Positions 3,001-45,836 of a stretch of DNA of 64,000 nt are shown in pieces. The notes beneath the pieces are model-generated. The model made no database searches, was not told where the DNA came from, and worked only from the letters and a program-made list of their open reading frames with translations. Source of the stretch: Diplonema japonicum (Eukaryota > Protista > Euglenozoa: Diplonemea); contig OZ025707.1 in assembly GCA_964019335.1 (NCBI GenBank), forward strand, positions 248,001 to 312,000, given 5' to 3'. Position numbers and translations under genes: made by a program. How positions within the stretch are numbered: position 1 is the stretch's first letter; each line of letters opens with the position of its first letter.

Positions 3001-6000
3001 CCGAGACTGGCAGCGACCCTTGCGGGTGCGCATTGCCGGCGTTTAAATGCGAAGCAGGGACAGAGGGAGTGTGTCAAGGGGGTGTGTGCCCCACTTGGGA
3101 TGCTCTTCCTGAAATCGATTGCAGGGGGTCACTGCCGCCTGTTGTGAACCGAGCAGCCCCGCATGTGTGCGGCTGTGAATGGCCTCCAGAACCGGTGTGC
3201 AAGCTGGGCACAGGTGCTGTCGAGAATAGCGCCTGTCCACTGGATGGCGTGCAGGAAGTCGCTGAGATCATCGACTGCGAGGGAAGCCCTTTGCTGGATC
3301 CCGTAATTTGGACACCCGGAACTGACAGGTGGGTCTTGACAAGGGGTTGCAAAACCTGCGCTACTGACGCCCGTCTCAAGAAGCAATGCAGGGAGGGCAC
3401 ACAGTGTCCCCTAGTCCAACCGTGCCCAGCAGGCTCCGACAGGGCGAAGGGAGTCAAGTGCCCTGTGGTGACTTATGTAGATGTTCAGTGCAACGGACGT
3501 GACCTCCCTCCCACGCAGAAGGTGGAAAGAGAGGAATGTTGGTGCGAACCTGCCTCGCAGCCACGCTGCTCCGACTGCATAAGCTGTTGCTTCGGTGAGC
3601 CGGGACGTTGCCACCCGTATGCATGCGGCGAAGGCAGATTGGTGTCCCCGCAGCCCTCTGACGAATGTAGGATATCATGCTCTATGGACTTACACTGTGT
3701 AGAGGGGTACATCTGTGTGGAAAAGGCGTGCAAGCCAGAGGGATCTTCGCAGCCTGCGTTGGGCAACTGCAGGTCTGACCCGTCTACGTGCGAGCCGTAC
3801 AGCTGTGACATGACTACCGGTATGTGTAGTGTGAGCTGCTGGACGGACAAACACTGCTTCGGTGGAGACGTTGGCGATAAGACCTCTGGCTACAGGTGCT
3901 CGTTCGCAACGCAGGCCGAATTGGTGCAAGTTCCGAAGTACCAAGTCATCGGTGGCACAGAGACTGCAGTGGAGCCCACCAACTTGTGCACGTCGGCAAC
4001 TGGATCAACCTCGGCGACTGCAAAGCCCGGCACGTGTGTTTGGGTGGAGTACGACCCGTCTCAGTGCTACGACCAGGAGCAGTGTTACCCATATGCGTGT
4101 GGGAAGAATAACGCACAAGCCGTATTCTCTCATGCAGCGTGCCGCACGTCATGTGCTAACGACGCACACTGCAGCACCAGAGCGCACTGTGAGGAAGGTG
4201 TGTGCGCACTAGGTGCACCGGCCACGCCCCTGTCATGCAGCACAAAGGACTACGATCACTGCTCTCCGTACGTGTGCGGGAAGCACATCGCATTGCAGCC
4301 GCTTCCAACCGCAACTTGCCGAAAGGACTGTGAGAGCGACGGCCACTGCCAGCTATTCCACCAGTGCACTAACCGCACATGCGTACCGGGTCCTGTCGTC
4401 ACAGAAGCATTCCAGTCCGTAACGGCCATTCCAGACGAATGCTACGATGCTGGCCAGGAGCACTTTGGGGCTCCCTATAAGTGCCTGCGGGTGCCTCTCA
4501 CGTTGAATAGGGACCCGCAAGGGCAGGTGGCGTATGCTTTGCCTCCGCGTGCTCCTGCTGCGAGCATCCCGTCCCCGAAGGCGTGCACAACACACCAGGA
4601 GTGCAGTCCTTATAGGTGTGGCGTGAAGCGCGGGCTCCCTGCACGAGAATTGCCTCCTCGCAGCAACTGCCAGATCAGCTGTGAAGTGTTCGAAGATTGC
4701 TCTGAGGGCTTTTCATGCTACCGCAAGCTCTGCGTCAAGTCCCTCGCCATAGGTGCACAGTGCACCATTGACAAACAGTGCGCCTCGGGTAACTGTGTGG
4801 ACGGTATCTGCTGCAACACCGCCTGTGACATGCCGTGCCAGAAGTGCTCCGACATGGGGGTGTGCGGCTGGGTAGGTGTGGGCACGGACTACAGGAACGA
4901 TTGCGGGAGCTGCCGCACGTGTGTTGCCAACAACAACGTGGAGGTGCCCCGTGAGTGCGGCCCTGTGCCAGATGGGCAAGACACAAAGAACAACTGTGGG
5001 GAGCATGGAACGTGCAATGGGGCTGAGGTGTGCCGGTGCCACGCTTCAAAGGAGGCAGGGTACTGGTCAGGGAGCACCTGCGATCGCTGCGCAAAAGGGT
5101 TCAGCGGAAACGCCTGCGCTTCCCCACAGCTGCGCTACGTCCCTCCAGCACCACTCCCTCCCGGCGCGGGGCCTGTGGCGGTATCGCCGGTCTTTGAACT
5201 CGAATACAGACCTATTCAATGGGCCTCGAAGGTTCTTGACTTCACAACGCAAGCCGCACCAGGGAACGTGCATGGGATCCTCGGCAAGCCTGACGCCACA
5301 GAGACATACTTCAAGGCGGCGGCTCCGAACAGGGCAAAGGCTTGGGAACCTCACCAGGTACGGGATAAAAAAGAAAAAAAAAAAGAAAACACCACACATC
5401 ATACAGTACTACTGCAACCGTCGAGTGCACCAGTCAACGTGCCCAGCAAAGCTGAAGGCGAACACAGAATGGGAACAGGAGCTGCAGTATATAGTACTGG
5501 AGTTCCCTGAGGCCATCTATTTGTCGCAGGTAGGTTGACTTCATAATAAAACAACAAACAAAAAAGGTGCACATCTACGAGAACAGCAACCCGGGGTCTG
5601 TTGTGAGGATATACGCGCAGCCTGCACCTACGGGAGCGGCCGCGTCGTCCGGTGGTGGTGCGCCGATAACAGTTCTCAATGCGAACGGGCAGGTGGTGGA
5701 GCAACCGAAGGTGCAAAAACCCACCTTCGTCAAAGACCAGGCAAAACTCAACGTCAACGCAACGGACTCAACCGCACTGTCCACAAGCAACTCCTCCCAA
5801 GGAACCCCCGTGAACATCAACACCAACACCGAGACCTTTTCTGAAATATGGTCGCGCAACGACCCGGTACACACAAAAAAAAAAAAAAAAAAAAAGGAAA
5901 AAAACACAATGTTCAACACAGCTATTCTTCACAAAGCCCACATCGTGGGTGTACGCACCGGCAACGGAGAACGACAACTTCGCCCACCCGACCAAGAGCG

Positions 6001-18146: not shown

Positions 18147-18529
18147 CAACACCACCAGGCAGTCTCCCACAGACCTAGCATATGTGAACTGTGAGGGGTT
18201 GGGGAAGAACGGATGAGAGGGAGGCCTTCAAAGGTCTGTTCCTGACACCGATGGGGATGGGCGCCGTGCACTATTTCAAGGAGGTGTCGATGGGCGACGA
18301 TGCTGTGAAGGTGCTGGCCGTCACAAGAGAGAGCATAATGCTGTTCACCAAGGAGTGCGGGCTGCAAGGCGTTGTGGCAATCGGTTCGGTGGTAGCGTGC
18401 GTGTGCGGGTTGGAAGGCTGGATCGCCGTGCACACCGAAGACAGGTGCCTGGCGTTCCAGTGCAAAGACCAACAACAATTTTATCTGGCTCGTTTTCAAC
18501 CTCTTCAGGCAGCTTCCTTTGAACAACTC
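18147..18529 (+). pseudogene. 5' fragment of a duplicate of the response-regulator gene at 47831 (ATG deleted, indels)
   Basis: Near-identical to about 47804-48221 (REAFKGLFLTPMGMG..CKDQQQF). The ATG-containing segment is missing and the copy is truncated at its 3' end. Confidence 0.85.
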
Positions 18530-19359
18530 AAAAGACTCCTCAGAGAACGAAACTTCTGTTATCGTTGTCCCCTCCCATCCTTTTTTAACCCATAAAGGAC
18601 CGGAGCTGATTCATCAGTCAGTAAGTAAAGAAATTTAAAATTCTGGCTCTAAGGCATTTGTAATGCTCCTACAGCCCTTCTTTAAAGATTTTCTTTTTAT
18701 ACTGAACGTTGTCTTGCCCGTAAATCTTTGCATCAAAACTGCAAGGGGAGAGAGAAAAAAAAAAAAAAAAGAAATAGTGGCAAAATTTAACATGCCAAAT
18801 CGTGCCAAGATTTTTAACACGCCAAAACCTTGCAGACCGGGAGGAAGGCTGTGATATTTTCAAGGCAAAATTTAACATTCGCAATGAAATGAAGAAAAAA
18901 CGGATGCTATTCGGGGCGTCACAGCCAGGAATGGTACTGGACGGGGTGGAGAGCAAAATGATAGGGAAGAGGGGAAGAGGGGTGGACAGGTTACGATAGC
19001 GAGAGAACCGAGACAGGCGTCACGACACATCGACGGCCTCGGGATCGGACAAGATGACAGAGTACAGCACCTCAAAATCGCAATAGGCGCAACCCGCTGG
19101 TTGCACACTTTCAACATGTATGCGAAGTAAGGAAGAACTCGAGCAGAAGAAATCAAGATCACAGGTCGACCCCAAATAACATCGGGGGGGGAGTCGATCC
19201 CGGGCCTCAGGATTGGTAGCCGGCCTGACCAGAAATTAACGTCCCGAAGGAACTTACTTCCTGGCATTAAATAGCTATTATTATACAAATTTTCGTTTTT
19301 AGAGTAACATCCAATCCCCAACACAGTCCACTCTACCTAAACAACAACAACAACAAAAT

Positions 19360-21153
19360 ATGGATCCGTCGGTACTTCAGAAGTACGAGCAAGGGGAGTA
19401 CCTCGGGTCCGGCGGACAGGGGTCGGTGTACAAGGCAGTGAGGAGGGTGGATGGAGATATCTTTGCGATGAAGGTGTTGAAGGCACACACTGAAGAGGAG
19501 CACAGGAAGAACATGGAGGAGGTGCGGCACATGCTGATGCTGCAACACAAGAACCTGGTTCCCTGCCTTGACTTCTTCGAGACGACAAAGCAGCTGGCAA
19601 AGGAATCCCTGGCCAAGGTGTGGCAGCTTCACATCGTGATGCCCCTGTACGGAAAAGGGGACCTCTACTCATACGTCAAAAAGGGGGGACCCCTCTCTCT
19701 GGAGAGAGCGTACACGCTCTTGCGGGAGATGGGAGGGGTCCTTCAGTACATTCACGACAAGGGCTTCATCCACAGGGACGTGAAACCCCAAAACATCATG
19801 GTGTCAGGGAAAGGACCTCTTTCTGCGGCCAGTGTTGTTGGTGGCGGCGGGGGGGAGGCAGAGTTCATACTTGCTGACCTGGGACTGTCGAAGGAGGTGT
19901 CCCCCGGTGAGGAAGCGGACTCCTTGTCAGGCACAAAAATTTACATGGCACCTGACTACTTTAACGACTGCTACACCAACAAAGTAGACATGTGGGCCCT
20001 CGGGGTGACTGTGTGTCACATGTTTCTCCAAGCAGACCTGAGGGATCTCTTTCTGAAGTACCTGCATCTTGACCGTGGGCTTGTGATGAAGAAGCTTCAA
20101 ACCCACCTCCCCCCTGCCCTTCGGAAGGTTGTGTTCCGCCTCCTCTCCACCGACCCTTTGGAACGCCCCAGTGCACTGGAGATGCTGCAGATAGTACCAA
20201 TACCAATGGTTCCTCAGACGCCAAGTATAGTTCTTCTTGCTGTTGGGAGTGTTGGTGGAGAAGAATGGAAAATGAGGCTCCGCGTGGCTGTGGGAGCAGG
20301 AGCGGAGGAGGTTCGTGTGGCGGCAGCAAAGGCCTTCTCTTCTGGTGGGCAGGAACTCCTCAGGGTTCGCAGGTTGGAGGTCTTCGACAAGGACTTCGAG
20401 GAGTTCGTGGTGCAGAAGGACGACGGGGACATCGTGTTCGAGGACAAAGGACGGGTCCGTGTCGTGTTTGAAGCACCGCTCCCAAGCACCACCTCTTCAA
20501 CCACCAGTGTCGGCAGCGACATTCACCCACCTGCTGCGAACAGCACCACCCTCACAACAGAGGAGGGGAGGCTTGCCTTGGTCGGCGCTGTTTCAAAAGG
20601 GGACCTTGAGGAGATGGAACTTGTTCTAAAACGGGGTGTTGACCCTGGTGCAACGGACAGCGATGGTTTCACAGCCCTTCACTATGCAGCTCGCGAAAAC
20701 AACTGTATCGGGGCTGTGGCTGCTCTCGTTTGTTCTTACCACCAGGACCCTGGTGTCAGAAGCAACAACGGTTGGACACCAGTTCATCTAGCAGCATTGA
20801 ACGGCCACTTCGAGACAGTTAAATATCTTGTTGAAACTCTCGGTCAAGACGCAGGTGTGAAAAGCAACGATGGTTGGACACCGCTTCATGCTGCAGCACA
20901 GAACGGCCACTTCGAGACAGTTAAATATCTCGTCGAATCTCTCGGTCAAGACGCAGGTGTCAAAAACAACGACGGTCGCACACCGGTTCATATTGCAGCT
21001 GATAACTGCCACCTCGAGACAATAGAATATCTTGTTGAAACTCTCGGTCAGAACGTAGGTGTGAAAAGCATCGACAGTCGGACACCAGCGATGAAGCAGC
21101 GAAGCAACAAGAAGACATGGTCGTCGTGGCGTGGCACAACATACACGCGCTGA
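19360..21153 (+). CDS. Ser/Thr kinase - ubiquitin-like linker - ankyrin repeat protein, copy 1 (about 5 ANK)
   Basis: GSGGQGSV, AMK, HRDVKPQN, DLG, YMAPD, KVDMWALG; then LEVFDKDFEEFV linker; then GWTPVHLAALNGH repeats. Confidence 0.85.
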   Translation: MDPSVLQKYEQGEYLGSGGQGSVYKAVRRVDGDIFAMKVLKAHTEEEHRKNMEEVRHMLMLQHKNLVPCLDFFETTKQLAKESLAKVWQLHIVMPLYGKGDLYSYVKKGGPLSLERAYTLLREMGGVLQYIHDKGFIHRDVKPQNIMVSGKGPLSAASVVGGGGGEAEFILADLGLSKEVSPGEEADSLSGTKIYMAPDYFNDCYTNKVDMWALGVTVCHMFLQADLRDLFLKYLHLDRGLVMKKLQTHLPPALRKVVFRLLSTDPLERPSALEMLQIVPIPMVPQTPSIVLLAVGSVGGEEWKMRLRVAVGAGAEEVRVAAAKAFSSGGQELLRVRRLEVFDKDFEEFVVQKDDGDIVFEDKGRVRVVFEAPLPSTTSSTTSVGSDIHPPAANSTTLTTEEGRLALVGAVSKGDLEEMELVLKRGVDPGATDSDGFTALHYAARENNCIGAVAALVCSYHQDPGVRSNNGWTPVHLAALNGHFETVKYLVETLGQDAGVKSNDGWTPLHAAAQNGHFETVKYLVESLGQDAGVKNNDGRTPVHIAADNCHLETIEYLVETLGQNVGVKSIDSRTPAMKQRSNKKTWSSWRGTTYTR

Positions 21154-21360
21154 TAACGAGACACATCTTTGTTGAAAAGCAAGTCAATATTTCGAAGACA
21201 CCGGGGGACCTGCCCCTCCGCAACAACTGCTCGATCGGAAGGCGGCTGAGACACTTATGATTTTATCAAGTGTTAATAAATGGGGTTGGGGGGAGGGGGA
21301 CAATTTCTGAGATTATTTTATACCCAGGGTGGTGGGGATAACACAGAAATATAGAATAAA

Positions 21361-21630
21361 GAAGTACATCAGATGTGTTGTTCGCTGTTGACCTCGTCGG
21401 TCATCACCGGTAGCGCCCGAGTGGAAGAACGTATCGCAGATGCTCAGGGTGACGAACAGGCAGCAAACTGCACGGGCTCAGAATCTTGGTTACCAGGGGG
21501 TACCATGGCTGGGGTTGAGTTGCACACCGCACGCATTAAGGACACGACACGGAACGCAGAAGAAGCTACAACTAGGCCGAGGCGCGCCCCCTGTAATCAA
21601 GTAGACGATACTTGTGCAGGGCGCCCTGCC
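21361..21630. repeat. Dispersed non-coding repeat X (other copies at 28694-28912, 36527-36621, 37648-37790)
   Basis: Shared blocks catcagatgtgttgttcgctgttgacctcgtcggtcatcaccggtagcgcccgagt and taaggacacgac..gccccctgtaatcaagtagac. Confidence 0.8.
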
Positions 21631-21756
21631 ACATACTGCAGGCACCCTTAAATAGTCTCTTTTTTGAACGGTGAGCACCCACCCGCACACCGAAATTTAT
21701 CAATTTTTTTTTTTAATTTTTTTGGGGGTTCTTGAATTTGGGTTAAAAGAAATAAA

Positions 21757-24036
21757 ATGACAACATCAACAACATCATCGACGTCCAGTGCGGTGGGAGC
21801 GACCTCCTCGAGGTTGAACCCCGGGCAACGGTGCCACATGGTGGGGGGTGGCAACGGCGAAGGCTTCGGCCGCGGGACGAACGGGGAGGTGGGCAAGGCG
21901 AAGGCCGAGCTCCTGACGAAGCTAGGAAGTGGAGTCTCGATCAGAGACTACTCCAAAACCGAAGGTGAGTGCCTCTACGAGGCGACCTCGGTAGCGATCC
22001 ACCAGGGCACCTCCGCTGGAGGGGCACTGAGGGAGCTGGTGGCCAGCCATCTGGCAGCCACCGACAACAGTGCGCTGTTGTACGCCCCAGAGCGCTACGG
22101 GGAGTACGTGCAAGCGGTGAGGGACGGGGCATGGGGAGACATCTTGCAGCTCCTCGCGGTCAGCCAGGTATGTCGGCGCCACCTGGCCTGCTACCAGGTG
22201 AAGGAAGGGAAGCTGCTGTGCACGTCTTTTGCTGCGCGCAACCCCGTAGTGAGCACCCCCATATACCTGGGGTTCGTAGCCGCTCACTACGTGACGCTGG
22301 AGGTGCGCGAGGGCACGGAGCTCCCGGCGGCGGGGACCTACAACAACCCGAAGGTCCCTATGCCCTACCTGAGCGAGGGGGCGAAGAAGAAGGCGGCTGC
22401 GACCGCAGCTGCAGCCGCGCGGAAGGCCAAGGACGGAGACGGCGAGACGAAGCCGAAGGAAGACGCGGTGCTGGTGGCGAACGGCTGGGAGGCGTTCTCT
22501 GGTGACTGGACGCCGCAGGTGGGCAGGAACAGGTCAGTCCTGCTCGTGCCGGCAGGGATGGAGAAGGAAGCGTCGCTGTGGCTGATGGACGCCGGCGACA
22601 AGGATGGTCCCACCCTGGTGTCCAGAAGCAAGCTCCCCACGATGCAGGGAGAGCAAGAGCAGGTGGTTCTTGCAACCGACGGCGGCAAAGGGAGGTGTGT
22701 CCGCAGGCTATGGGTGACCGCGAAGGGCGGCCCTCCGCTGAAGCAGGTCAAGCAAGCGACGACGGTCCCCGCGGTGGTAAGCTGTACCGCCGAGGTCTAC
22801 CTGGTAGAGAAGACCAAAAAGGACTTCCACAGCGCCAGGAGGGACCTCGTCCGCTGGGCTGCGAGCAAATGCGCAGGACGGGTCGAGCCAAGGTCAGGGT
22901 CAAAGAGGGACGGCTGCGCCGAGCTATGCCTGGTGGTGGCCCGGGCAGACCTGGACACCCTGTACCGACACAGCGGGACCGGTGGGGTCTTTGTGCGCCC
23001 TCCACACCAGTCGACAGGAAAGTTTCCGGTGCTGTGGATCGTAGGAGCCTCGGCTACTGACGTCGCACTCCTCGCGAAGCAAGCGGACGGGCTGGGTGTG
23101 GCCTGGAGCAAGAGCACGGGGGAGTTCGGAATCCGAGTGAAGGCGGAGAAGCTGGAAGAGATGACGGCCTTCCTGCAGAACAGGACGGCGAAGAAGGTGA
23201 AGGACACCCGGCCTACACCGATCAGAGGGACCCCCTACACCGTCAAGGGAATGGGAACGCTGGTCCCGGGGCTGGAGGTGGAGCAGAGGCTGCTCTCGAT
23301 CGGGTGGGCGGCACAAGCGGTACGCGTGCTAGCAAGTGGCAGGAAGACGTGCACGTGGCTGGTTGCGTCGGAGGCTGAACCGCCTGGCCTTCTGTTCGGG
23401 AGCGGCGACGAGCAGTGGGTGATCCGGCCGCATAACGGGGAGGGTGACCTGCTGAAGCACTCCACATGGGGGAGCAGAGGTGGGCCGAGGAAACCGACGC
23501 CAGCCTCTCCACCTGCTGCCAAGAAGAGCACGAAGTCGAATGACTTCCCCCCCCTACGAACCGCCGCGCAGCCTCGACCTGCCAAGCAACCGAAGCAACC
23601 GAAGCGGGACGGCGAAGCTGAGCAGTCGTTCCACTCGTGGTGGCAGGCCAAGGAGGCCGAGTTCGCGGAGAAGGATCGCCGACACGAGGAGACGATGGCG
23701 AAGCTCCATCACGAACAGCAGAGGAGGCAGGCTGACCAGGAGGCCATGTCGAAGGCGCTACGGGACGCACTGAACAAGATTGTCCGGATGCAAGAGGAGC
23801 AGGAGCGAACGCAAGCCCGGCTGATGGAGGTGGAGCAGCAGCTTACCGAGTTGGCGGCGGTTGCGCTGACAAGCAGTGGCAGCAGGAAGAGAACGGCAGG
23901 CGGTGAAGAAAAAGGCGGGAAGGTGTCGAAGTCCGGCGCGAGGTCCACAGCGAGCACCCCCACGCAGATGGCGGTCGACCCGCAGCACCCAACCACCCCG
24001 CTGCTGCTGCCCCAAGGGCCGGCGCAACAACAATAG
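21757..24036 (+). CDS. LINE ORF1 with N-terminal OTU-like cysteine protease and C-terminal coiled coil
   Basis: EGECLY (Cys codon 21970), LRELVASHL, GAWGDILQL, IYLGFVAAHY (His codon 22285); coiled coil EKDRRHEETMAKL..EQQLTEL. Confidence 0.8.
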   Translation: MTTSTTSSTSSAVGATSSRLNPGQRCHMVGGGNGEGFGRGTNGEVGKAKAELLTKLGSGVSIRDYSKTEGECLYEATSVAIHQGTSAGGALRELVASHLAATDNSALLYAPERYGEYVQAVRDGAWGDILQLLAVSQVCRRHLACYQVKEGKLLCTSFAARNPVVSTPIYLGFVAAHYVTLEVREGTELPAAGTYNNPKVPMPYLSEGAKKKAAATAAAAARKAKDGDGETKPKEDAVLVANGWEAFSGDWTPQVGRNRSVLLVPAGMEKEASLWLMDAGDKDGPTLVSRSKLPTMQGEQEQVVLATDGGKGRCVRRLWVTAKGGPPLKQVKQATTVPAVVSCTAEVYLVEKTKKDFHSARRDLVRWAASKCAGRVEPRSGSKRDGCAELCLVVARADLDTLYRHSGTGGVFVRPPHQSTGKFPVLWIVGASATDVALLAKQADGLGVAWSKSTGEFGIRVKAEKLEEMTAFLQNRTAKKVKDTRPTPIRGTPYTVKGMGTLVPGLEVEQRLLSIGWAAQAVRVLASGRKTCTWLVASEAEPPGLLFGSGDEQWVIRPHNGEGDLLKHSTWGSRGGPRKPTPASPPAAKKSTKSNDFPPLRTAAQPRPAKQPKQPKRDGEAEQSFHSWWQAKEAEFAEKDRRHEETMAKLHHEQQRRQADQEAMSKALRDALNKIVRMQEEQERTQARLMEVEQQLTELAAVALTSSGSRKRTAGGEEKGGKVSKSGARSTASTPTQMAVDPQHPTTPLLLPQGPAQQQ

Positions 24037-24045
24037 CAATTACAG
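24031..24045 (+). promoter_or_regulatory. Putative programmed stop-codon readthrough signal CAA-TAG-CAA-TTA-CAG (TMV-type UAG-CARYYA)
   Basis: This is the only stop between the same-frame ORF1 and ORF2, and its context is identical to the tobamovirus leaky stop. Confidence 0.75.
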
Positions 24046-27000
24046 TTGTCGGCAGGGATGAGTGGAGGAAGCGCTAGTGGCCCACCTCTGCTCGATGACG
24101 TGCTCCGGATCACATCGATCAACGTCGGGTCGCTGCACAACAAGCTCCCGCAGGTCCTCGCAACACAAGATGAAATCGTATGCCTGCAGGAGACCAAGCT
24201 CACTGAACACGGTCAGCACCAGCTATCGCAGGCGATCGATGAGGGCGGGTATCACCCCCTATGGGGCCGCGCTCAGGAAGGCATGCCAGACAGAGCAGGG
24301 GTACTCAATCCGAATCTTGGGCAAAGGGGAGGCGTCGCGGTGCTGACAAAGAAAGGCAGACCTGCCATCGTAGCTCCTGCGTCGGGGATCACTGTGCAAC
24401 CGAACAGGTGGCTGCACACCATGATAAACGTGGATGGCCGCGATCTATGGGTCCACGTCATCACGGTGTATTGCAGTGCCGGTTACTACGGGAAGGATGA
24501 CAGGGAGCGACTCCTGCACGCGCTGCTCGTTGACCTGAGGGCTAGGCTTGGGGAGGTGCCGATCCTGATCTTGGGGGATTTGAACACGGACGTTTCCGGG
24601 TCGGCGACGCTGAGGCACGCAGTGGAAAACGACTGGGTCGATGTCGGAGCACTTCAGGCCGAGAAGGACGGAAGGAGACCTGACCACACCTTTGAGCGAC
24701 CCGGGACGGAGACTAAGACGCGGATAGACTTTGTCCTAGCCAACGCAGTGGCTGCCGGGGCGCTGAAACGCTTCTGGACGCACAAGAGGGTAAGGACTGG
24801 GGAGCATCTGTGCCTTTCTGTTGAGCTCTTCACACCGACGCTCAAGAAACGGACAAAGCGGTTTTTCCTCCCGAGGGAACTACCGGTGGGAGCGGTAACG
24901 CCTGACACTGAGCTTGACCAAGAGCTTGCTGACGACGACGTGCTCCGTCATGCTGCCGACAACAGGGACGTGGGAGGCCTCTACACCGTGCTGAGCTGCG
25001 CAACCGAGCGGTACATGCTGTCCGCCGCCGGGGTGACGAATGTGAAGCCGTTCGTAGGCAGGGGGGAACCACGGGAGCTGTCGGAGAAGATGGTGGCGGC
25101 GAAGTCGACTGGGACGTCAGGAGGGGCGGCCGCGCGGGACCAGACGATGCACGGCAACCTGAAGAGGAAGATTCAGGCTCTCAGGATCGGGCTGAACGAG
25201 GCGCTGCTGCGGGGTGGACCAGGAACGCTGCCGGCGATGCTGCATGGGACGTGGAAGAACATCGTGAAGCTGGCCGGGAAGATGCGCCTCGGGGTCGTGC
25301 TGGACGAAGATCTCCTACGGGGACCCAGCCTGGAAGCCGCGCTGGTGGGACTGCAGGAGCTGGAGGCTGCAGCGGACCAGGGTGACATGGAAACGGTGAA
25401 GCAGCAGCGTCTGGAGAACGAGGCAAGATACAGGAAGCGGGTGGCGGCTGATTTCCGTGACGACAGACGGCGTATCGTGGCGTACGTCAAGGGGAACAAG
25501 GAAGCCCACACACTGGCAGTTGCGAAAGAGGACAGTAGGTTGACGGTAGATCTGGAGGAGATCGACGCACTGATGAGGGGGGCGTGGGCCTCTGTCTTCC
25601 ACCTGTACCCGAACAAGAGCGACCGGCCCTCCTACGCTGCCTTCAAGGAGAGGTATGGCAAGTATGTCGACGGGCACCCCATGGAACTGGAACCGATCAC
25701 GGGTGGCGACCTCAGGGAGGTGCTGAACAGTAGGCCGGCGAGAGGAACCCCGGGTGTGGACGGCTGGAGGATCGCGGAGCTGAAGGCTATACCTGACGCG
25801 CTGCTGGAGAGGTGGGCGCAGCTCTTCAACATCATCGAGGAGACCGGCGAATGGCCGGAGGCGCTACTGACGGCACTCGTCTCCCTGATACCCAAGGGTG
25901 AGGACAGATCCCCGCTGAACCATCGGCCGATCACGGTCACCAGCGCTGTGTACAGGCTGTGGGCGACGACGAGGATGAGGCGCATCTTGGTCTGGCAGGA
26001 GTCGTGGGCGCACACGTCACAGCACGGTTTCAGGTCGAGGAGAGGGACGGACACGCTGCTGCTGGAGCTGACGACGCAACTCGAGGAAGCCCTGCTGTCG
26101 GGCACACCGATGCACGGTCTCGCACTGGACTTTGTCAAGTGCTTCGACCGCATCCCGCGGGAGGTGGCACTTGGACTGATGGGGGACCTGGGGCTACATC
26201 AGAACATACTGCGGCCGCTGACGACGATGTACGAGTCCCTCAGGCGGAGGTTCAAGTACCCGACAGGGGTGGGTGACGAGTTCGCCACATCGAACGGCAT
26301 CTTGCAGGGGTGCCCGATCTCGGTGGTGATGGTGAACGCGCTGGTGGGGGTGATGGTGAGGGCGATCATGGCGGAGGTGCCCGGGGCAGATTCCCTGTCG
26401 TACGCAGATGACGTGTACCTGATTGCAGCTCTGCTCAGCGCACTGGAGAAGGCGGCAGCGGGGGTAGGTGAATTCTCTCTGCTAACGGGGATGAGTCTCA
26501 ACCTCAAGAAGACGGACATGTTCTCCACAGAAGGGTCCGGGTCGGTGAAGTGTGGGCGGGAAGTGCTTGCAGCCAAGACGGAGATCAGCGCCCTGGGCAT
26601 CAAGGTTTGCATGGACGGCGAGCACAGGGCCAAGCCCCTTGTGGGAATGGAGCGGGCGTGCGGAAGGCTGGCTGCCATGCCGTTGGGATTCTCACAGAAG
26701 GCAAGGATCATCTCCAGCTCCATCCTCCCCTCTTGCCTCTACGGTGTTGCGTATGCCCCCCCCTCGAAAGTGGATGCAGGCACAATCCGGTCGAGAGTAG
26801 CGACATGCCTCTGGGGACCGAAGTTCAAGATGCGCTCACCGTGTGCTGTAGCGAACATCTTGCTGCCGGGGCACACGACGGACCCGCTGGTGGTGACGCT
26901 TTATCGACTGTTGTGCACGGTGGTGAAGGTTGGTAGGTCGGATGCAGAGCTGTGGGACCGGATGGGAAGGTGTGCCGCCCTGTACCTGCAGAGCGACGTG

Positions 27001-28170
27001 GAGGCCCAGGGACCAGTGGGAACCCTAGTGAGACGATGGCTGCCGGCGGTCGGGAAGAGCTGGAGTTTTGTGGAAGGGCTGCGTACCACGACCGAGCGGG
27101 AACGCAAACACGAGATCCGCCGAGTGGCACGGGCCATGACAGCAGCGGAACAAGCAGAAGGGAGGACCTCCTACAGCGGCATGCCAGAGGGGGCCGACCC
27201 GGTCACGAACGGGTGGTGGAGGGCGCTCGCGAACAACCCGATGGCGGCGTACAGGTTGAGGAGGCTGATTGCTGGGGCGGTGTTTGCGGTGTACCCTGCG
27301 GTGCGGGGAGTGGCGGAGGGGCCGGACAACCCGCTGCAGCACCTCTGTGACGTGTGTGGGGAGCGTTACGGCAGCTACACCGAGGTGCTGGAGCACGCCC
27401 TCTGGCGATGCGAACTCGGAGATGCGGTGCGGGGCAAGGCAGAGTATGCGAGTCTCGACCCAGCGACCATGCCGAACGCGACGACGCTCCACGGGATAGT
27501 GCCCAGGGGATGCCAGGACAAGCCGAGGGCCCTGTTGGTGCAAAGGTACCTGCTGGAGGTGGTCACACTGAGGGATACGGCGGTGGAAGCGAACCGCGCA
27601 TTGCAGACGCAGACATACCCGTGGCGGGTGGTCGTGACGGGAAGGGCACACCCGACGCCGACGGTGGCCGAATTACGTGGGCTGGGAGCATCGGGGAAGG
27701 TGATGGACAGGCTGCTGGGGCCGGTGCTGAGGTGGCTGAGTGGCTTGCTGTGGGATGACGCCCCTGGACGGCACACGACGGTTACGACGCTGGAGCTTGC
27801 CCTCGACTTCGAGCGGGAGACGGAGCTGCCGCTAGACGACGGCGGGGAAGTGGGCAAGGTGGAGGACCTGGGCGTCAAGGCAAGGAGGCTGAGGTATGTG
27901 CTGAGACGTGTCCAGGACCTGTACCACGCTGATGGCAGAAGGACGGCGTTCCCAGCAGCGCGAGTGGATCGCGTCAACTCCCTGCGCTGTATAGGAGGAC
28001 CGACCACACACGGGTATGACAGGAGGCCAGTACTCCCGGAGCGAACCATGAGCAGCATCGAAGGCTTGCGTGACACGTACCTGTCGCAGACCCCGACAAG
28101 GCTGCCCCGCAGTTTTACCACCGCAGTAGGAACCCGCCAGAGCCCCCAGAACGGGGACAACGGGGACTAA
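24037..28170 (+). CDS. LINE ORF2: AP-like endonuclease + reverse transcriptase + C-terminal Zn knuckle (first ATG at 24058)
   Basis: SINVGS, CLQETK, LGDLN, TRIDFV, GEH (APE); PGVDG, RPIT, QHGFR, LDFVKCFD, GILQGCPIS, YADD (RT); CDVC..HALWRC. Confidence 0.92.
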   Translation, partial: QLQLSAGMSGGSASGPPLLDDVLRITSINVGSLHNKLPQVLATQDEIVCLQETKLTEHGQHQLSQAIDEGGYHPLWGRAQEGMPDRAGVLNPNLGQRGGVAVLTKKGRPAIVAPASGITVQPNRWLHTMINVDGRDLWVHVITVYCSAGYYGKDDRERLLHALLVDLRARLGEVPILILGDLNTDVSGSATLRHAVENDWVDVGALQAEKDGRRPDHTFERPGTETKTRIDFVLANAVAAGALKRFWTHKRVRTGEHLCLSVELFTPTLKKRTKRFFLPRELPVGAVTPDTELDQELADDDVLRHAADNRDVGGLYTVLSCATERYMLSAAGVTNVKPFVGRGEPRELSEKMVAAKSTGTSGGAAARDQTMHGNLKRKIQALRIGLNEALLRGGPGTLPAMLHGTWKNIVKLAGKMRLGVVLDEDLLRGPSLEAALVGLQELEAAADQGDMETVKQQRLENEARYRKRVAADFRDDRRRIVAYVKGNKEAHTLAVAKEDSRLTVDLEEIDALMRGAWASVFHLYPNKSDRPSYAAFKERYGKYVDGHPMELEPITGGDLREVLNSRPARGTPGVDGWRIAELKAIPDALLERWAQLFNIIEETGEWPEALLTALVSLIPKGEDRSPLNHRPITVTSAVYRLWATTRMRRILVWQESWAHTSQHGFRSRRGTDTLLLELTTQLEEALLSGTPMHGLALDFVKCFDRIPREVALGLMGDLGLHQNILRPLTTMYESLRRRFKYPTGVGDEFATSNGILQGCPISVVMVNALVGVMVRAIMAEVPGADSLSYADDVYLIAALLSALEKAAAGVGEFSLLTGMSLNLKKTDMFSTEGSGSVKCGREVLAAKTEISALGIKVCMDGEHRAKPLVGMERACGRLAAMPLGFSQKARIISSSILPSCLYGVAYAPPSKVDAGTIRSRVATCLWGPKFKMRSPCAVANILLPGHTTDPLVVTLYRLLCTVVKVGRSDAELWDRMGRCAALYLQSDVEAQGPVGTLVRRWLPAVGKSWSFVEGLRTTTERERKHEIRRVARAMTAAEQAEGRTSYSGMPEGADPVTNGWWRALANNPMAAYRLRRLIAGAVFAVYPAVRGVAEGPDNPLQHLCDVCGERYGSYTEVLEHALWRCELGDAVRGKAEYASLDPATMPNATTLHGIVPRGCQDKPRALLVQRYLLEVVTLRDTAVEANRALQTQTYPWRVVVTGRAHPTPTVAELRGLGASGKVMDRLLGPVLRWLSGLLWDDAPGRHTTVTTLELALDFERETELPLDDGGEVGKVEDLGVKARRLRYVLRRVQDLYHADGRRTAFPAARVDRVNSLRCIGGPTTHGYDRRPVLPERTMSSIEGLRDTYLSQTPTRLPRSFTTAVGTRQSPQNGDNGD

Positions 28171-28255
28171 GAACAGCGCGGCCGGTGAGCGCAAAAACGC
28201 ATACCTTAAAAGAATAGTTTTTTATCTGATAGTTCAGAAATTTCTTCACTCCTAA

Positions 28256-28375
28256 CCCCCCCTATAATCTGATTACCCCCCTCTCATAATTTGATAATCC
28301 GGGCTATAATTTGATAGCTCAATTATGGGCAGGACTTTGGTGTTTATGGCCCGTGACTGCCAAATTATAGGGGGG
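28256..28375. repeat. Short inverted-repeat (MITE-like) element
   Basis: ccccctataatctg at the left pairs with caaattataggggg at the right; internal ataatttgata repeats. Confidence 0.35.
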
Positions 28376-28423
28376 AATGTGACATTATTGGGGGCAGAGT
28401 GAAATTCTTGGGCTCAAGATCAT

Positions 28424-28457
<34 letters not shown>

Positions 28458-29025
28458 ATCAAATGCCGAAAACGAAGAAGGAAGAGAGTCTTCTACACAT
28501 TACCTGAAAACATGGGCTGACTTTCAGCTGCTTTGCACCAAAAAGCAGAAACTGGCCATGGACAAGTTGCTGTCTCCAGTAAAAAAAAAAAAAAACTTTC
28601 TCATAGTTATCGATGTCGTTTCCTCCCTTCCCGACCGGGGAGCCAGATGGTGGGGATAATATGAACTTAAGAATTGCATTAACTTAAGAAAAACATCAGA
28701 TGTGTTGTTCGCTGTTGACCTCGTCGGTCATCACCGGTAGCGCCCGAGTAAACATCGTGACGAACACGCGCCGAATCTTGGTTACCCGGGACGCCCCGGC
28801 TGGGGTTAAGCTGTACCGCACGCATTAAGGACACGACGCGGAACGCAGAAGAAGCTACAACTCGGCCGCGGTGCGCCCCCTGTAATCAAGTAGACAATTC
28901 TTGTGCAGGGCGTCGCCAACACCCTTTTAACTTTTATAAAAATATTTTTCTATAATACATAATCTCGTTTTCCGAGTTCCAATCCCCAACACAGTCTACC
29001 TAAACAACAACAACAACAACAAAAT

Positions 29026-32000
29026 ATGGATCCGTCGGTACTTCAGAAGTACGAGCAAGGGGAGTACCTCGGGTCCGGCGGACAGGGGTCGGTGTACAAG
29101 GCAGTGAGGAGGGTGGATGGAGATATCTTTGCGATGAAGGTGTTGAAGGCACACACTGAAGAGGAGCACAGGAAGAACATGGAGGAGGTGCTGCACATGC
29201 TGATGCTGCAACACAAGAACCTGGTCCCCTGCCTTGACTTCTTCGAGACGACAAAGCAGCTGGCAAAGGAATCCCTGGCCAAGGTGTGGCAGCTTCACAT
29301 CGTGATGCCCCTGTACGGAAAAGGGGACCTCTACTCATTCGTCAAAAAGGGGGGACCCCTCCCTCCGGAGTGGGCATACAGGCTCTTAAGCGAGATGGGA
29401 GGGGTCCTTCAGTACATTCACGACAAGGGCTTCATCCACAGGGACGTGAAACCCCAACACATCATGGTGTCGGGGAGGGGACCTCTTTCTGCGGCCAGTG
29501 TTGTTGGTGGCGGTGGGGGGGAGGCAGAGTTCATACTTGCTGACCTGGGACTGTCGAAGGAGGTGTCCCCCGGTGGGGTAGCGAATTCCATAGCAGGCAC
29601 ACCCGCTTACATGGCACCTGACTACTTTAACGACTGCTCACCCGGCTACACCAACAAAGTAGACATGTGGGCCCTCGGGGTGACTGTGTGTCACGTGGTG
29701 CTCCAAGCAGACCTGAGGGATCTCTTTCTGAAGTACCTGCAACATAACCGGGAGCTTGTAATGGAAAACTTTCAAACCCACCTCCCCCCTGCCCTCTGGG
29801 AAATTGTGTTCCGCCTCTTCTCCACCGACCCTTTGAAACGCCCCAGTGCACTGGAGATGCTGCAGATGGTTCCTCAGAATCCGACTGGTATAGTGGGGGG
29901 AATTGTTCTTCTTGCTGTTGGGAGTGTTGGTGGAGAAGAACGGAAAATGAAGCTCTGCGTGGCTGTGGGAGCAGGAGCGGAGGAGGTTCGTGTGGCGGCA
30001 GCAAAGGCCTTCTCTTCTGGTGGGCAGGAACTCCTCAGGGTTCGCAGGTTGGAGGTCTTCGACAAGGACTTCGAGGAGTTCGTGGAGCAGGACGACGGGG
30101 ACATCGTGTTCGAGGACAAAGGACGGGTCCGTGTCGTGTTTGAAGTACCGCTCCCAAGCACCACCTCTTCAACCACCAGTGTCGGCAGCGACATTTACCC
30201 ACCTGCTGCGAACAACACCACCCTCACAAAAGAGGAGGGGAGGCTTGCCTTCGTCAGCGCTGTTTCAAAAGGGGACCTTGAGGAGATGAGGGAACTTGTT
30301 CTAAAACGGGGTGTTGACCCTGGTGCAACGGACAGCGATGGTTTCACAGCCCTTCACTATGCAGCTCGCGAAAAAATCCGTATCGAGGCTGAGGTTCTCG
30401 TCTGTTCTTACAACCTGAACCCTGGTGTCAGAAGCAACGATGGTTGGACACCGGTTCATTCTGCAGCTTTCAACGGACGGCTCGAGACAGTTAAATATTT
30501 TGTTGAAACCCTCGGTCAAGACGCAGGTGTGAAAAGCAACGATGGTTGGACACCGGTTCATCAAGCAGCAGAGAACGGCCATCTCGAGACTGTTACATAT
30601 CTTGTCGAAACTCGCGGTCAAGACGCAGGTGTCAAAAACAACGACGGTAGGACACCGCTTGATCTAGCAGTACAGAACGGCCACCTCGCGATAGTTAAAT
30701 ATATTGTTGAAACTCTCGGTCAGGACGCAGGTGTCAGATGCAACGACGGTTTTACACCGATTCATGCTGCAGCAGAGTACGGCCAGCTCGAGACACTTAA
30801 ATATCTTGTTGAAACTCTCGGTCACAACGCGGGTGTGAAAAGCAACGACGATTGGACACCGGTTCATGCTGCTGCACAGAACGGACACCTCGTGACAATT
30901 ATGTATCTTGTCGAAACTCGTGGTCACGACGCAGGTGTCAAAAACAACGACGGTAGGACACCAATTCATCAGGCTTCATTAAACGGCCACCTCGAGACTG
31001 TTAAGTATCTTGCTGAAACTCGTGGTCACGATATAAGTGTCAAAAGCAACAATGGTTGGACACCGGTTCATGCTGCAGCAGAGAACGGCCACCTTGAGAC
31101 ATTTAAATATCTTGTTGAAACTCGCAGCCACGACGCAGGTGTCAAATGCAACGACGGTTTGACACCGATTCATGCTGCAGCAGAGTACGGCCACTTGGCG
31201 ACAGTTAAATATCTTGTCGAAACTCTCAGTCAGGACGCAGGTATTAGAAGCAACGACGGTTGGACACCGATTCATGCTGCAGCAGAGAACGGCCACCTCG
31301 AGACAGTTAAATATCTTGTAGAAACTCTCGGTCAGGACGCAAGTGTGAAATGTAACGACGGTTGGACACCGGTTCATGCTGCAGCAGAGAACGGCCACCT
31401 CGAGACAATTATGTATCTTGCAACTTGCGGTCAGGACGCAAGTGTCAAATGCAGTAACGGTTTGACAACGGTTCATGCTGCAGTACAGAACGGCCACCTC
31501 GAAACAGTTAAATATCTTGTTGAAACTCTCGGTCAGGACGCAGGTGTGAAATGTAACGACGGTTGGACACCTATTCATCAGGCTGCATTAAACGACGATC
31601 TCGAGGTAGTTAAGTATCTTGCTGAAACTCTCGGTCAAAACGCAGGTGTCAAAAGCAACGACGGTTGGACACCGATACATCAGGCCGCATTCAACGGCCA
31701 CCTCGAGACAGTTAAATATCTCGTTGAAACCAGCGGTCAAGCCCCAGGTGTCAAAAGCTGCTGCGGTCAGACACCGGTTCGCATAGCAGCCGAGAATGGC
31801 CACCTCGAGACGGTTAAATACCTTGTTGAATCTCGCGGTCAAGCTGCAGGCGTGAAATGCGACCACGGTTTTACACCGATACATCAAGCTGCATTGAACG
31901 GCCACCTTGAGACAGTTAAATATCTCGCTGAAACTCGCGGTCAAGATGCAGGTGTGAAAAGCTGCACCGGTCGGACACCGGTTCATCAAGCAGCAGAGAA

Positions 32001-36514: not shown

Positions 36515-38399
36515 CCGCAGCCCGTCCTGGCTAGGGTTAAGCTGCACACTTTAAGGACACGACGCGGAACGCGGAAGAAGCTACAGCTCGGCCGCGGTGC
36601 GCCCCCTGTAATCAAGTAGACAGCTCATGCTTCGCTGCACACTTAACGCCACTTGGTGTTGCAATCAAAGCCCCGTATTTTTCTCTTTTTTTTTTTTTTT
36701 CTTCTTCTCCTTTCTCGTTCCTCCCTGTGTTTTTTCTTTAATCAGAATGGTGCGACTGCTCAGATAACGTGCACGGGACCTCAAGCTAGTTTTATGGTAA
36801 AATGAATATGTTGAGACGGTTCGTACGAACCCCTACAGACCCTGTTGAGTGTTTGTACGCATGCCGCACTGAATATACGTACCTACCTTACCAATGAATA
36901 TACGTAAAAATATCATAAATACAAGTTATAGAACCTCTTTGCACGCCCCAGCACACATTCTTTAAGCAACGTTTTATCTTCCCTGCCCTCCCCCCTTTTT
37001 TTTTGGACACTTCTTAACACACTTCCATTGGCTCCACTCAGCCACCCCCCCCCCTCTTTTTGTCTTTTCTGTTTATCCCCCCCCTTTTTTTCAAAATGTC
37101 AACATAAACACACAGGACGGGGGGTGAATGGGTGGGTGACAGCGCGGCTGTGACACGGTTGTTCGAGTCGGGGTATTCCCGTAACTGGACTACGAGCGGC
37201 ATTCTCTCAAAAACTTCTGTTTGGTATGATTCCTTTTCCGTGGCAGGTGGCGCTTTAGGTGGCCGAAAAGAAAGCACGATCCCCTCCTATCCCGGGGAAA
37301 CCCTTCTTGACATCCTCCCTCCGATCCATTGGTGCAAACAAACGGGTCCGAGGAGGGTATTCCTGCAGACCTACATTCGCATCGTACGACAAGGTGCGCT
37401 TCATCCTTGAACAGCGACTCGCAACCGGCTCACTGGGGAGGGACGACTGGGACAACAAGTTCGTGCCGACTATTTTGAATCTACCCGAAGAATCCCCACC
37501 CCATCTGCCGATAAAGATGCAGCGACGCAGAAGTAACAACACAAGATAGACCCTCCACCATGCTGCACACTTAACGCCAAATAGTGTTGCAGCCAAAGCC
37601 CCATTTTTCTTTCCTTTTCTTGAGGTGGTGGATAACATGGAAATATAAGAAGTACATCAGATGTGTTGTTCGCTGTTGACCTCCTCGTCGGTCATCACCG
37701 GTAGCGCCCGAGTGGAAGAACGTATTGCAGATGCTCAGGGTGACGAACAGGCAGCAAACTGCACGAGCGCAGAATCTTGGTTACCCAGGACGCCCTGGAG
37801 TCGGGGTATTCCCGTAACTCACGGCTGATCCGATCAAGAGCCCCGCATCTGTCCAGGTCCCCGTTATGGGGACCCGGTCCATGCAGTTGGACTCTCTTAT
37901 TTAACTAGTTAAATTATGGCCGTTTCGCGTTAAATTATGAGGCCCCTAGTGAGTGAAGAAAATGACGAAGAGTGAAATAAAAAAAAAAAAAAGGCCATTA
38001 GCCAACTGTGGAAAGAGAATACCCATGTCACAAAAGGTGCTAGAACAATAACACAGGCCGACACGAAAGCACGAACGTCTCAACACACTTCCGTTGGCTC
38101 CACACAGCCCAGCTGGGTGGGGTCGGTCTGGCTAGACCGAATTAAAAAAAAAAAAAAAAAAAAGAGTGCCCTGCAACCGAAGCGGCGAGGGCGAAGCACT
38201 CTTCGACACCCTGTCACTGAAGCACGTCCTAGTGGAAGAACCCCGAAAGACGATCCTGTTTCTCGCCGAAACAGAGATGCAACCCCCCACCACGGCAGCC
38301 GACCGAACAGACGCAGCAGTGTGAAGAAAATAGAAAACCCCCCAACGAACTTTTCCCCACCCCATAACGTGATCAAAAAAAAAAAAAAAAATAACTATT

Positions 38400-40180: not shown

Positions 40181-43100
40181 ATGAAGATCACCGCGATGTG
40201 TGCACACCCCGATGTGCTGAACTACGACTTCACTACCTGGGCCCCCAAGACCGTCTTCAGGTACCTGAACTTCCTGAGACGTTACTTCGTCGGGAACTTC
40301 TTCACCGCCAAGATCGCGGCTATCGAACGAGGCCTCACCAACCGCCTCAGCCCTGCCCTCTTGAAAAAGGTGGTCCGCCGAGACGAAGGCTTCGTGTGGT
40401 TCAAAACGAGTTTTGACCACAAGGCCAAGGAGATGATCCTCTGGCGTAAGGTCTTCGAGGACAAGGAGGTAATTGCGGCATGCCCCAAGCCAGCCCTCCT
40501 TCGCAGAGTACACATGTGCAACAAGCTTGGTCAAACCCTCAAGGCCACAGTGTGCAATGTGACGAAGCTCAGCATCGAGACCCCGCGTCCAGAAGCGGCC
40601 GAGCCTACAACAAACTGCCCTTGCTCGAAGCGCAAGACCTCACACACACATGAGGGACACGCCTGCGGACTAGCAGCAGAGGTCATCGATGACGACGAAG
40701 TGAAGGAGGTTCTGAACAGAAGCATGAAGTTCCGCCTCTCAACACACGCCCTCCTCTCTTCCCAAAGTCTCGAGGAGGACATCAACGGGTTCATCACTCA
40801 GAACTTTCGGAGATCCCCTGCAGTGAAAAAGGATTCCTTCCGGAAGGTCCTCCTCGCCAAGGCACAGAACCTTCTCCACCCCCACACTCAGTCTCCGGTC
40901 TTCGACCCCTCAGTCCCGGAGTTCATCAAGACAAAGCTCCGGAAACTTCAGGAGGTCTACGTTTTCCTCCCCATAGACAAAAGCACCCACGACATTGGCG
41001 TCTGTTGCAAGGATCGCCCCTTTTTATCTATTTCTTCGCTTCTTCATCCTAACTTAAAACCATTTCAGCTACCTCAGGATCCTGCACCAACAGCTTGATA
41101 GCCAAGCTTTCGAGCCGGTCTCGAAGCCCTTGGACTCGATCTTCTCCGAAATAGCTGATCAAGCCAAGACCTTCAACCTCGATTCCACACGTCGCATGCC
41201 ATACCTGTACGGTACCCTGAAGCTACACAAAGACAAAGTGGGCGTCAGGTGGATCTCTGGTGTCTCCTCCACTGATGCACCCCCTGTGGACCAACCAGCA
41301 GCGGTCAGCACGCAGGAAATTATGGAGAACTTGGTCGCAGCAGGCGGCGATACAACGGGCAATAAAGCTAAGAAACCCACAGCTGCCACCACGGCCCTCC
41401 ATCTAGAACTGTCTTCCCTCCTGAAGGCTGTCCAACGCGCGCTGCTGGACAAGGATCTGGAGGGCAGGTCCAAGACCCACGGTCCCGACGGTATCCGACT
41501 AAAGCGGTACTGGATCGTCGACTCGGCCGAGAACGTAGCTGCGGATATCAAGCAGCAGTACACGGCTTACAAAAGCCTGTCCCCTGCCACGTACGACTTC
41601 CGGGACATGTACACCAACCTCGACCAAGAGCGTCTGAAAGAGGGGGTTCGTAAAGCAGTCCAAGAAGCGTTCGACTTCACCGGCAAGAACCTCACCCGTG
41701 GCAAGGACGGGAGCTCCTTCACAGATGCCGACGAGGACGATGTCTACACCCCGGAACGGATCCATAAGCTCCTGGACCTCGTCGTTGACAACACCTATGT
41801 TGTGCAGGGTGGCCGCGCCGTTCGTCAAGTAAAGGGTATCCCCATGGGTGGGAACGCCTCCCCCGACCTGGCGAACCTGTTCTGCTACGCCGTGGAGGCC
41901 GCATACATCGACAAGCTCCTCGCCGAAGAGGACTGGGAGACCTTGAAACGCTACTGCAACGCGTGTCGCTACATCGACGACTTCCTGTTGTGGAGCACTG
42001 CGCCACCCCCGGAGGAGCTTTATGGCATGGCTTATGTAAAGACCTCTTCAGACCCATGCGACGTCCCCTTTATCGGGATTCGCATCCGGATAGAGCGCCA
42101 CGAACAAGCTAAGCACAACTATATTAGACTTAGCATTAACGATAAGGCGCAGAACTGGCGCTTCCGGCCTACGCGGTTCACCCACGGGCACACCGCGGCG
42201 CCCACCACCCAGGGACCAGGCATCTTCAAGGGCATGGTCATCCGTGCCTGCGCCCTGACCAACAACATCGCGGACCTCAAACGGGAGATCGCTTCAGTGA
42301 TCTACCTGCTCCTAGATCGCGGTCACGACAAGGGCGGCCTGCGGAAAGCGTACAACGCCTTCCTTATCGAACGCGTGGATCGACGCTTCGCCATGGAGAA
42401 AAGCAACCTGCTGGCCTTCTTCACGCAAGTCCTCCACCGATACGACGCCAAAGCCCCGGTAGATTCTTGGTTGCCGGAAAAAACGTACATAGGCCCCAAG
42501 AAACCCCGTGCGCTTCCCACGGACGACTCCTCGGACGACTCCTCAGCTGACTCCTCAGTCGTCTCCTCAGTCGCCTTCTCGGGGGGCCCCTCAGACGAGC
42601 CCTCGGACAGTTCCTCGGACAGCTCTTCAGGTCTTGTCGAACCGTCACAACCCCGAGCAGCCTCCGTGGTCTCACCATCTGGTGTCACGGACCAGGTTTT
42701 TTCGCCCCCCATCAACCTGCACACCAACAGCGGGGAAGGTCGCCTGGGCCTGGAATGCGGCTGGGCCGTCATAAACTGGTTGGCGGACTATGCTGGTGTG
42801 GACCGCATCCCCTTCTCTACAATGCAGGAGATCCAGGAGATGTACCACGGCTTCTCACGACTCATCTCCCCTTCCAGCACTGATGAAGCGCCCGATCCTC
42901 TTGGCAACTTTTCCCGCTCGACCTTGTCACGTGCTTGCCTCATGGTCGTTGGTGCAAACTTGGAGGTCTTCCGTGCGGGCATGAAAGAAAGCCCCTGCTT
43001 GATCGTTGGTCCCTTGAAACGAAGTCTCAGCGGCCACTGGTTCATCGCTCTCAGGAAGAAGGGAAGGTACATGGTCAAAGACACCGACGTACGGCTAAGG

Positions 43101-45350: not shown

Positions 45351-45836
45351 GAACTACTGGAGACGACCCTACGCAATGTAGGAGTGCCGGCCCGGCGTGC
45401 TACGAGGGCGATAGGCTATGCAGGGTCTCACAGACCTCGCACCCTATGATTTTAGTTTCCACCTTTTCCTTTTCCACTTCTTGTCTTTTAACTTCCCTTC
45501 TGCTTTCCCAACATGGTTTCCGTCCCGGGTATGACGTTAAACTGCGTCCGCCGACGCATTTGGGTCAACATTCTCTGATGACCAAGCCGTCTTTTTCCGT
45601 TTCTTCTCCCCTTCTCTTTGTTATGTTATTTTCATTATTCTTTCTGGCGATAGACTGATACGGGCCATGGAAGCAACCTCTGCTTAATTCCTGGTACGTG
45701 GGAGGCTCCTCTTGAGGATGTCAGTCACCTTTTCCCTTTTTTACTCGACTCTCTGTTTTCGTATGCAGTATTTATTCTTTCCCACCCCTTTTTATCTATT
45801 TCTTCGCTTCTTCATCCTAACTTAAAACCATTTCAG

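Follow-up and report, generated by a model that had tools for sequence, protein, structure and literature searches.

What stands at the N-terminus of a LINE ORF1 in the diplonemid Diplonema japonicum, and what might it do for the element that carries it? The question is raised by a stretch of 64,000 nucleotides (contig OZ025707.1, positions 248,001 to 312,000; hereafter the window, whose first letter is position 1), in which a sequence-only reading had proposed an OTU deubiquitinase-like domain at 21930-22305, approximately residues 59-183 of ORF1. This proposal is borne out. The motifs that it had listed (EGECLY, LRELVA, WGDILQL and HY, with Cys and His intact) are present, and on the two points that it had named as able to overturn it the results are favourable: an OTU fold is predicted by a structure model and Foldseek, and Cys and His are kept among copies. 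The feature can be delimited as an OTU cysteine-protease domain of 135 aa (residues ~51-185, 21907..22311), which lies on the plus strand, as do all the features of the element given below.

Judging by its ORFs, domains and candidate ends, the carrier of this domain is an intact two-ORF LINE, that is, an APE-type non-LTR retrotransposon (21752..28205) with endonuclease and reverse transcriptase, in which both frames are open. ORF1 (21757..24036, 759 aa) consists of the OTU domain, a linker, three predicted RRM-like units and a helical C-terminal region, and ORF2 (24037..28170, 1377 codons) follows in the same frame with one TAG between them. In ORF2 there are an AP endonuclease (24118-24747; Pfam Exo_endo_phos, E 1.7e-11), a reverse transcriptase (25891-26604; RVT_1, E 2e-18) and a Cys/His finger near 27340-27430. 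Its top match among solved structures is human L1 ORF2p (E 6e-20), and no RNase H was matched in it by a profile search.

The ends of the element are marked by a candidate 5′ target-site duplication of 9 bp (21743..21751), with a second copy at 28206. This is the longest exact repeat shared by 21620-21830 and 28165-28520, and it is taken as a candidate duplication only. When two narrower stretches, picked post hoc, were shuffled 500 times, 9 nt were reached in four cases. GC content shifts close to both candidate ends. There is no poly(A) inside 21752..28205, an A-run at ~28426-28456 falling outside. Within these ends the 5′ leader would measure approximately 5 nt, and it may be speculated that the element is expressed via spliced-leader trans-splicing by the host. 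A search of Rfam with 21200-21760 gave no matches.

By profile, modelled fold and Cys/His positions alike, the N-terminal domain of ORF1 is an OTU. The Pfam search that had been suggested for it returned PF02338 with an E of 1.2e-6 and a score of 29.4 bits, for which the cut-off is 23.3 bits, and human OTUD1 (4BOP) was matched by phmmer (E 2.2e-4). When a profile was built from three cellular OTUs, it gave the ORF1 domain 52.7 bits, whereas none of 1000 shuffled versions exceeded 7.7 and the reversed sequence reached −2.4; this control is favourable in that the three cellular OTUs were themselves matches of the query. Similarly, the search of the PDB with alignment A5 is circular because this alignment contains cellular OTUs. 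A fairer test is the profile built from three LINE-type OTUs alone, which matched OTUD1 with an E of 5.8e-9 and OTUD5 with an E of 5.4e-7. When language-model features were compared, 26 of the 30 matches listed were OTU domains and the remaining four were OTU plus C65. No second OTU was found in the six frames of the window, and a viral scan with the OTU profile confirmed none of its 55 candidates.

The AlphaFold model of residues 51-190 reached a mean pLDDT of 91 and a pTM of 0.86, and its top Foldseek match was the complex of OTUD5 with ubiquitin aldehyde (E 8.9e-9, TM 0.74, probability 1.0). The TM of the model was 0.73-0.74 against OTUD5 and OTUD1, and OTUD3, yeast Otu1 and nairovirus OTUs were also matched. 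Every match listed was an OTU domain, the cellular enzymes ranking first. As the alignment supplied to the model contained cellular OTUs, an OTU-like outcome was favoured, and the model is thus not fully independent of the profile results. The ranking also bears on the remark in the earlier reading that RNA viruses use this motif pattern: the assignment of the motifs to OTUs stands, but the cellular OTUD structures are closer than the viral OTUs, and the link to RNA viruses is consequently an analogy.

In alignments, Cys72 falls in the Cys box, Trp126-Gly127 on the WG and His177 in the His box, the Cys and the His being at the OTUD1 positions. Cys72 (21970..21972), the predicted nucleophile, stands opposite the Cys in the Cys box of OTUD1, and no change in its codon is listed in any of the five contigs that cover it. 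His177 (22285..22287), the predicted general base, is invariant in alignments A2, A5 and A7 and is kept in four of four transcript isoforms, including the one with a second-subfamily C-terminal part. Both residues are retained in all the LINE-type relatives seen, and Cys72, like His177, is invariant in A5 and A7. By contrast, the position of the OTUD1 Asp and the OTUD5 Asn, His+2, is occupied by a Val (Val179, 22291..22293), which is shared by all three LINE-type OTUs of alignment A7 (the window copy, P0007 and P0013). The canonical third residue, Asp or Asn, is therefore absent and the active site looks like a Cys-His dyad. In the nairovirus OTU the His+2 Asp belongs to a triad, while TYMV PRO, which is described as being without the third residue, has an exposed dyad and acts only poorly as a DUB (PMC3744425). 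PMC10318531 likewise mentions OTU-like enzymes with a dyad.

Trp126 of the WG motif (22132..22134) is the predicted oxyanion-hole residue, a role that is taken from the Trp of vOTU (PMC3744425), and its codon has no change listed in six of six covering contigs. In the four transcript isoforms, however, residues 124-126 (Gly124-Trp126) are deleted, and the two transcript proteins without these residues that were scanned score 16.7 and 17.9 bits with Pfam OTU, below the cut-off. The transcribed copy may consequently be impaired. As the four isoforms represent one assembled gene, the deletion may belong to one copy or one assembly path, and it is listed in none of the public contigs. Neither the Val at His+2 nor the loss of Trp126 in transcripts had been remarked on in the sequence-only reading. 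Among the transcript proteins, P0004 is apparently an assembly chimera (first subfamily to ~residue 149, second beyond) and P0006 has a frameshifted C-terminus.

Copies of the element were taken from contigs and transcripts in public data. ORF1 is 99% and 83% identical to transcript proteins that carry the label Diplonema japonicum, so the element family is transcribed; the sequencing runs listed for the element sequence include no RNA run. The public contigs hold the sequence of the window and a second subfamily that is ~13% different in DNA. Over 21935-22195, the contig of the second subfamily has 35 differences, of which 32 were readable and used: codons 67-138 show 24 synonymous and 8 non-synonymous changes, corresponding to a dN/dS of ~0.075 at a dS of ~0.68 (binomial p 4e-9). 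By this comparison the OTU domain is under purifying selection, which indicates that the domain matters and is no proof that it cleaves ubiquitin. The strand half of the OTU is 72% identical (26/36) between the subfamilies, compared with 85% for the ORF1 body.

More distant relatives were sought with an exhaustive HMMER search using residues 1-348 of ORF1, which gave eight matches: the LINE-type P0004, P0007 and P0013, the cellular-type OTUs P0009-P0011, and P0008 and P0012, repeat proteins that were set aside as spurious. P0007 carries the same species label, is ~35% identical and scores 27.4 bits with Pfam OTU. P0016, from another assembly, is 27% identical over 507 aa spanning the OTU and the ORF1 body in the same layout, and matches Pfam OTU with an E of 4e-12 and 47.1 bits. 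Judging from these alignments, P0007 and P0016 are probably ORF1s of LINEs and the OTU-ORF1 fusion appears to recur in P0016. Word-based protein searches found two relatives of ORF1 and one of ORF2 (E 1e-30), counts that are no measure of rarity, as each search scored ~8000 candidates within a length band. A metagenome scan with ORF2 gave 40 loci, all of them matching the endonuclease part only, with an E of 3e-6 or weaker, and sequencing run X12 had no contig over the OTU.

The rest of ORF1 is compatible with an RNA-binding ORF1p to which an OTU was added at the N-terminus, as far as the models go. The model of the ORF1 body is of low confidence (mean pLDDT 55) and contains three beta-alpha-beta units at residues ~341-563, predicted to be RRM/ferredoxin-like (residues ~341-418, 420-486 and 488-563; 22777..23445). 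Their best VIA-align match was the RRM of TRMT2A (Z 8.8, rmsd 2.4 over 71 residues), and the best matches were mostly RRMs; non-RRM ferredoxin-like folds score nearly equally, and such a Z may reflect the common fold. Pfam gave no match for these units, and the RRM of PSPC1 was matched at an E of 0.11 only. A probable coiled coil, recognised by eye, follows at residues ~630-705 (23644..23871).

On the predicted fold, the retained Cys72 and His177, the selection and the fusion to the ORF1 body, we infer that the domain, which is under purifying selection, is more likely than not a deubiquitinase that acts on the ORF1p and ORF2p of the element itself and would so spare the retrotransposition particle from degradation. 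In this model, the RRM-like units would let ORF1p bind the RNA of the element, so that numerous copies of the enzyme would come to lie beside ORF2p. From a Cys-His dyad that has a Trp in its oxyanion hole, modest activity would be expected, and proximity could make this activity sufficient, an argument already made for TYMV, whose OTU is likewise a dyad. The OTU would then strip ubiquitin from ORF1p and ORF2p, and the particle would escape degradation. It is known that mammalian L1 ORF1p and ORF2p are restricted through ubiquitin-dependent degradation (PMC5570191, PMC10716122), evidence that is mammalian and not diplonemid. Additionally, the Josephin domain of Dualen has been proposed to disrupt protein degradation (PMC8557442).

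Other explanations agree with parts of the evidence. The OTU could have little or no enzymatic activity and instead bind ubiquitin or act as a scaffold, as might be suspected from the Val at His+2, from the loss of Trp126 in the transcribed isoforms and from the lower identity of the strand half (72%, against 85% for the ORF1 body). Nevertheless, Cys, WG and His are retained at 27-36% identity in P0007 and P0013/P0016, and dyad OTUs can be active (PMC3744425, PMC10318531), and we regard this explanation as improbable. A somewhat more doubtful idea is that the targets belong to the host, for instance ubiquitinated chromatin, DNA-repair factors where the element inserts or ribosomes that have stalled on its RNA. 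The OTU/Ulp1 domains of Ginger1 have been proposed to activate DNA repair (PMC2836005), and PMC13405545 cites a case in which a viral OTU alleviated the loss of protein caused by stalled ribosomes; the fusion to ORF1p, though, would put the domain on the RNA particle and not on the integration enzyme. Finally, the domain might be a recently captured host fragment without a role for the element. The nearest solved structures are indeed those of cellular OTUD enzymes, and in a tree of seven OTUs (P0013, P0014 and P0015 were left out as near-copies), in which no branch was supported, the LINE-type OTUs formed one clade in only 33% of bootstrap trees. However, a dN/dS of 0.075 at a dS of ~0.68 has largely refuted this explanation, the same fusion is found in an ORF1 that is 27% identical, and we consider a capture of this kind very improbable.

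The junction of the two ORFs suggests a further task for the domain. The ORF1 stop lies in a readthrough context of the TMV type, UAG-CAR-YYA (24031..24042), in frame with ORF2, and it is the only match among the 297 TAG triplets of the plus strand of the window. UAG-CAR-YYA has been described as the TMV readthrough signal (PMC3542737). Seven codons past the stop, the first ATG of ORF2 begins a stretch, M-S-G-G (24058..24069, ORF2 codons 8-11), that may be a start site, a cleavage site or both. An ORF1-ORF2 readthrough fusion is plausible on these grounds, and it is graded no higher because ORF2 has its own conserved ATG. By analogy with the tymovirus PRO, which cuts its polyprotein, it could be imagined that the leaky UAG yields a fusion of 2137 aa and that the OTU cuts after M-S-G-G, freeing ORF2p, an activity compatible with deubiquitination. 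We find such self-processing rather unlikely, although it is the foremost of the alternatives to a deubiquitinase acting on the element's proteins. The exact context and the shared frame speak for it, and M-S-G-G also begins the ORF2 of a family that is 45% identical (P0017), in which it is kept while the residues that follow differ. M-S-G-G, moreover, resembles the hydrophobic-x-Gly-Gly end of ubiquitin. By contrast, the conserved Met is equally well explained as the start codon of ORF2, and the stop lies among CAA repeats, so that a CAA after it is more probable by chance. TYMV PRO is a precedent, a dyad OTU in which polyprotein cleavage and deubiquitination are combined (PMC3744425, PMC5695851), and reinitiation, which counts against self-processing here, is the known route in L1 and SART1 (PMC5972666). 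The complete scenario, in which the LINE would be expressed like a plant RNA virus, with a TMV-type leaky stop giving an ORF1-ORF2 polyprotein and its own dyad OTU both freeing the reverse transcriptase by a cut after M-S-G-G and de-ubiquitinating the particle, is distinctly less likely.

Whichever its substrate, deubiquitinase-type domains are already known in other transposons, whereas our search, which covered listings of open-access papers, turned up no report of an OTU on a LINE ORF1. For instance, LINE ORFs of D. papillatum are listed in PMC10161547, in the main text of which OTU refers to taxonomic units only. The closest case is the LINE ORF2p of Symbiodinium necroappetens (PMC13405545, a 2026 preprint), likewise a protist OTU N-terminal to the LINE endonuclease and reverse transcriptase functions. 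There it is one sequence, noted in passing, with the OTU fused to ORF2p in a 2A-peptide context, while the OTU described here stands at the front of an ORF1 that is distinct from ORF2 and is closed by a stop of the readthrough type. Dualen/RandI (PMC8557442, PMC13405545) also combine a non-LTR element with a deubiquitinase-type cysteine protease, for which the same anti-degradation role has been proposed, but are described as having Josephin instead of OTU, two endonucleases and no separate ORF1 carrier. Similarly, NeSL and Utopia-1_TSP (PMC4640811) are non-LTR elements with an N-terminal cysteine protease of the Ub/Ubl type, which differ in having a Ulp1 fold, a restriction-like endonuclease, one protein and site specificity. 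The same Pfam OTU domain is found on Ginger1 transposases and Helitron/Helentron proteins (PMC2836005, PMC6431247); these are DNA transposons, however, and their OTU is fused to the transposase or the RepHel protein.

The cellular OTUD1, OTUD3, OTUD5 and yeast Otu1 share the fold, the Cys box and the His box with the LINE domain, which has its WG as in OTUD1; they differ in the Asp/Asn at His+2 (OTUD1, OTUD5) and are 11-22% identical to it. The PRO/DUB of TYMV (PMC3744425) also comes from an RNA-based parasite and is an OTU with a Cys-His dyad in place of the triad. It is described as also being without the oxyanion Trp, whereas the genomic copy of the LINE keeps Trp126, and its cleavage and DUB activities have been shown, while the LINE OTU is known from its sequence and a model. 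For the deubiquitinase-type domains carried by several classes of transposons, the roles given in the sources cited above are proposals. The present element, which is intact and whose ORF1p has a small OTU (135 aa) with a good model, lends itself to testing whether ubiquitin-mediated restriction is countered by retrotransposons, as well as to asking whether a LINE can make ORF2p by readthrough plus self-cleavage.

Other features were observed around the element and elsewhere in the window. At 21700-21756, immediately upstream of the ORF1 ATG, there is a T-rich tract followed by AG. The LINE is flanked by two kinase-ankyrin genes (19279-21086 and 28951-30758), which are 90% identical over 1.8 kb and have ankyrin arrays of unequal length; a third ankyrin stretch lies near 45743-46270. 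A dispersed repeat of ~270 bp occurs in four places (21359-21625, 28686-28912, 36523-36622 and 37624-37798), has thousands of variant contigs in public runs and no Rfam match, and looks SINE- or MITE-like. A second retroelement ORF of 1430 codons (41058-45350) has a weak reverse transcriptase match (E 1.8e-4) and, by its motifs, is what we take to be Penelope-like. Its pattern of Cys (near 42756), His-Trp (near 43035) and Asp recalls, in our estimation, the Josephin proteases, a resemblance that was not supported by sequence searches of Pfam and the PDB. The frame at 3-5510 is open for at least 1835 codons and has no Pfam match at an E of 0.1. Finally, a segment of 346 bp (18169-18514) is repeated with 96.5% identity at 47852-48192, where the second copy lies inside a response-regulator ORF.
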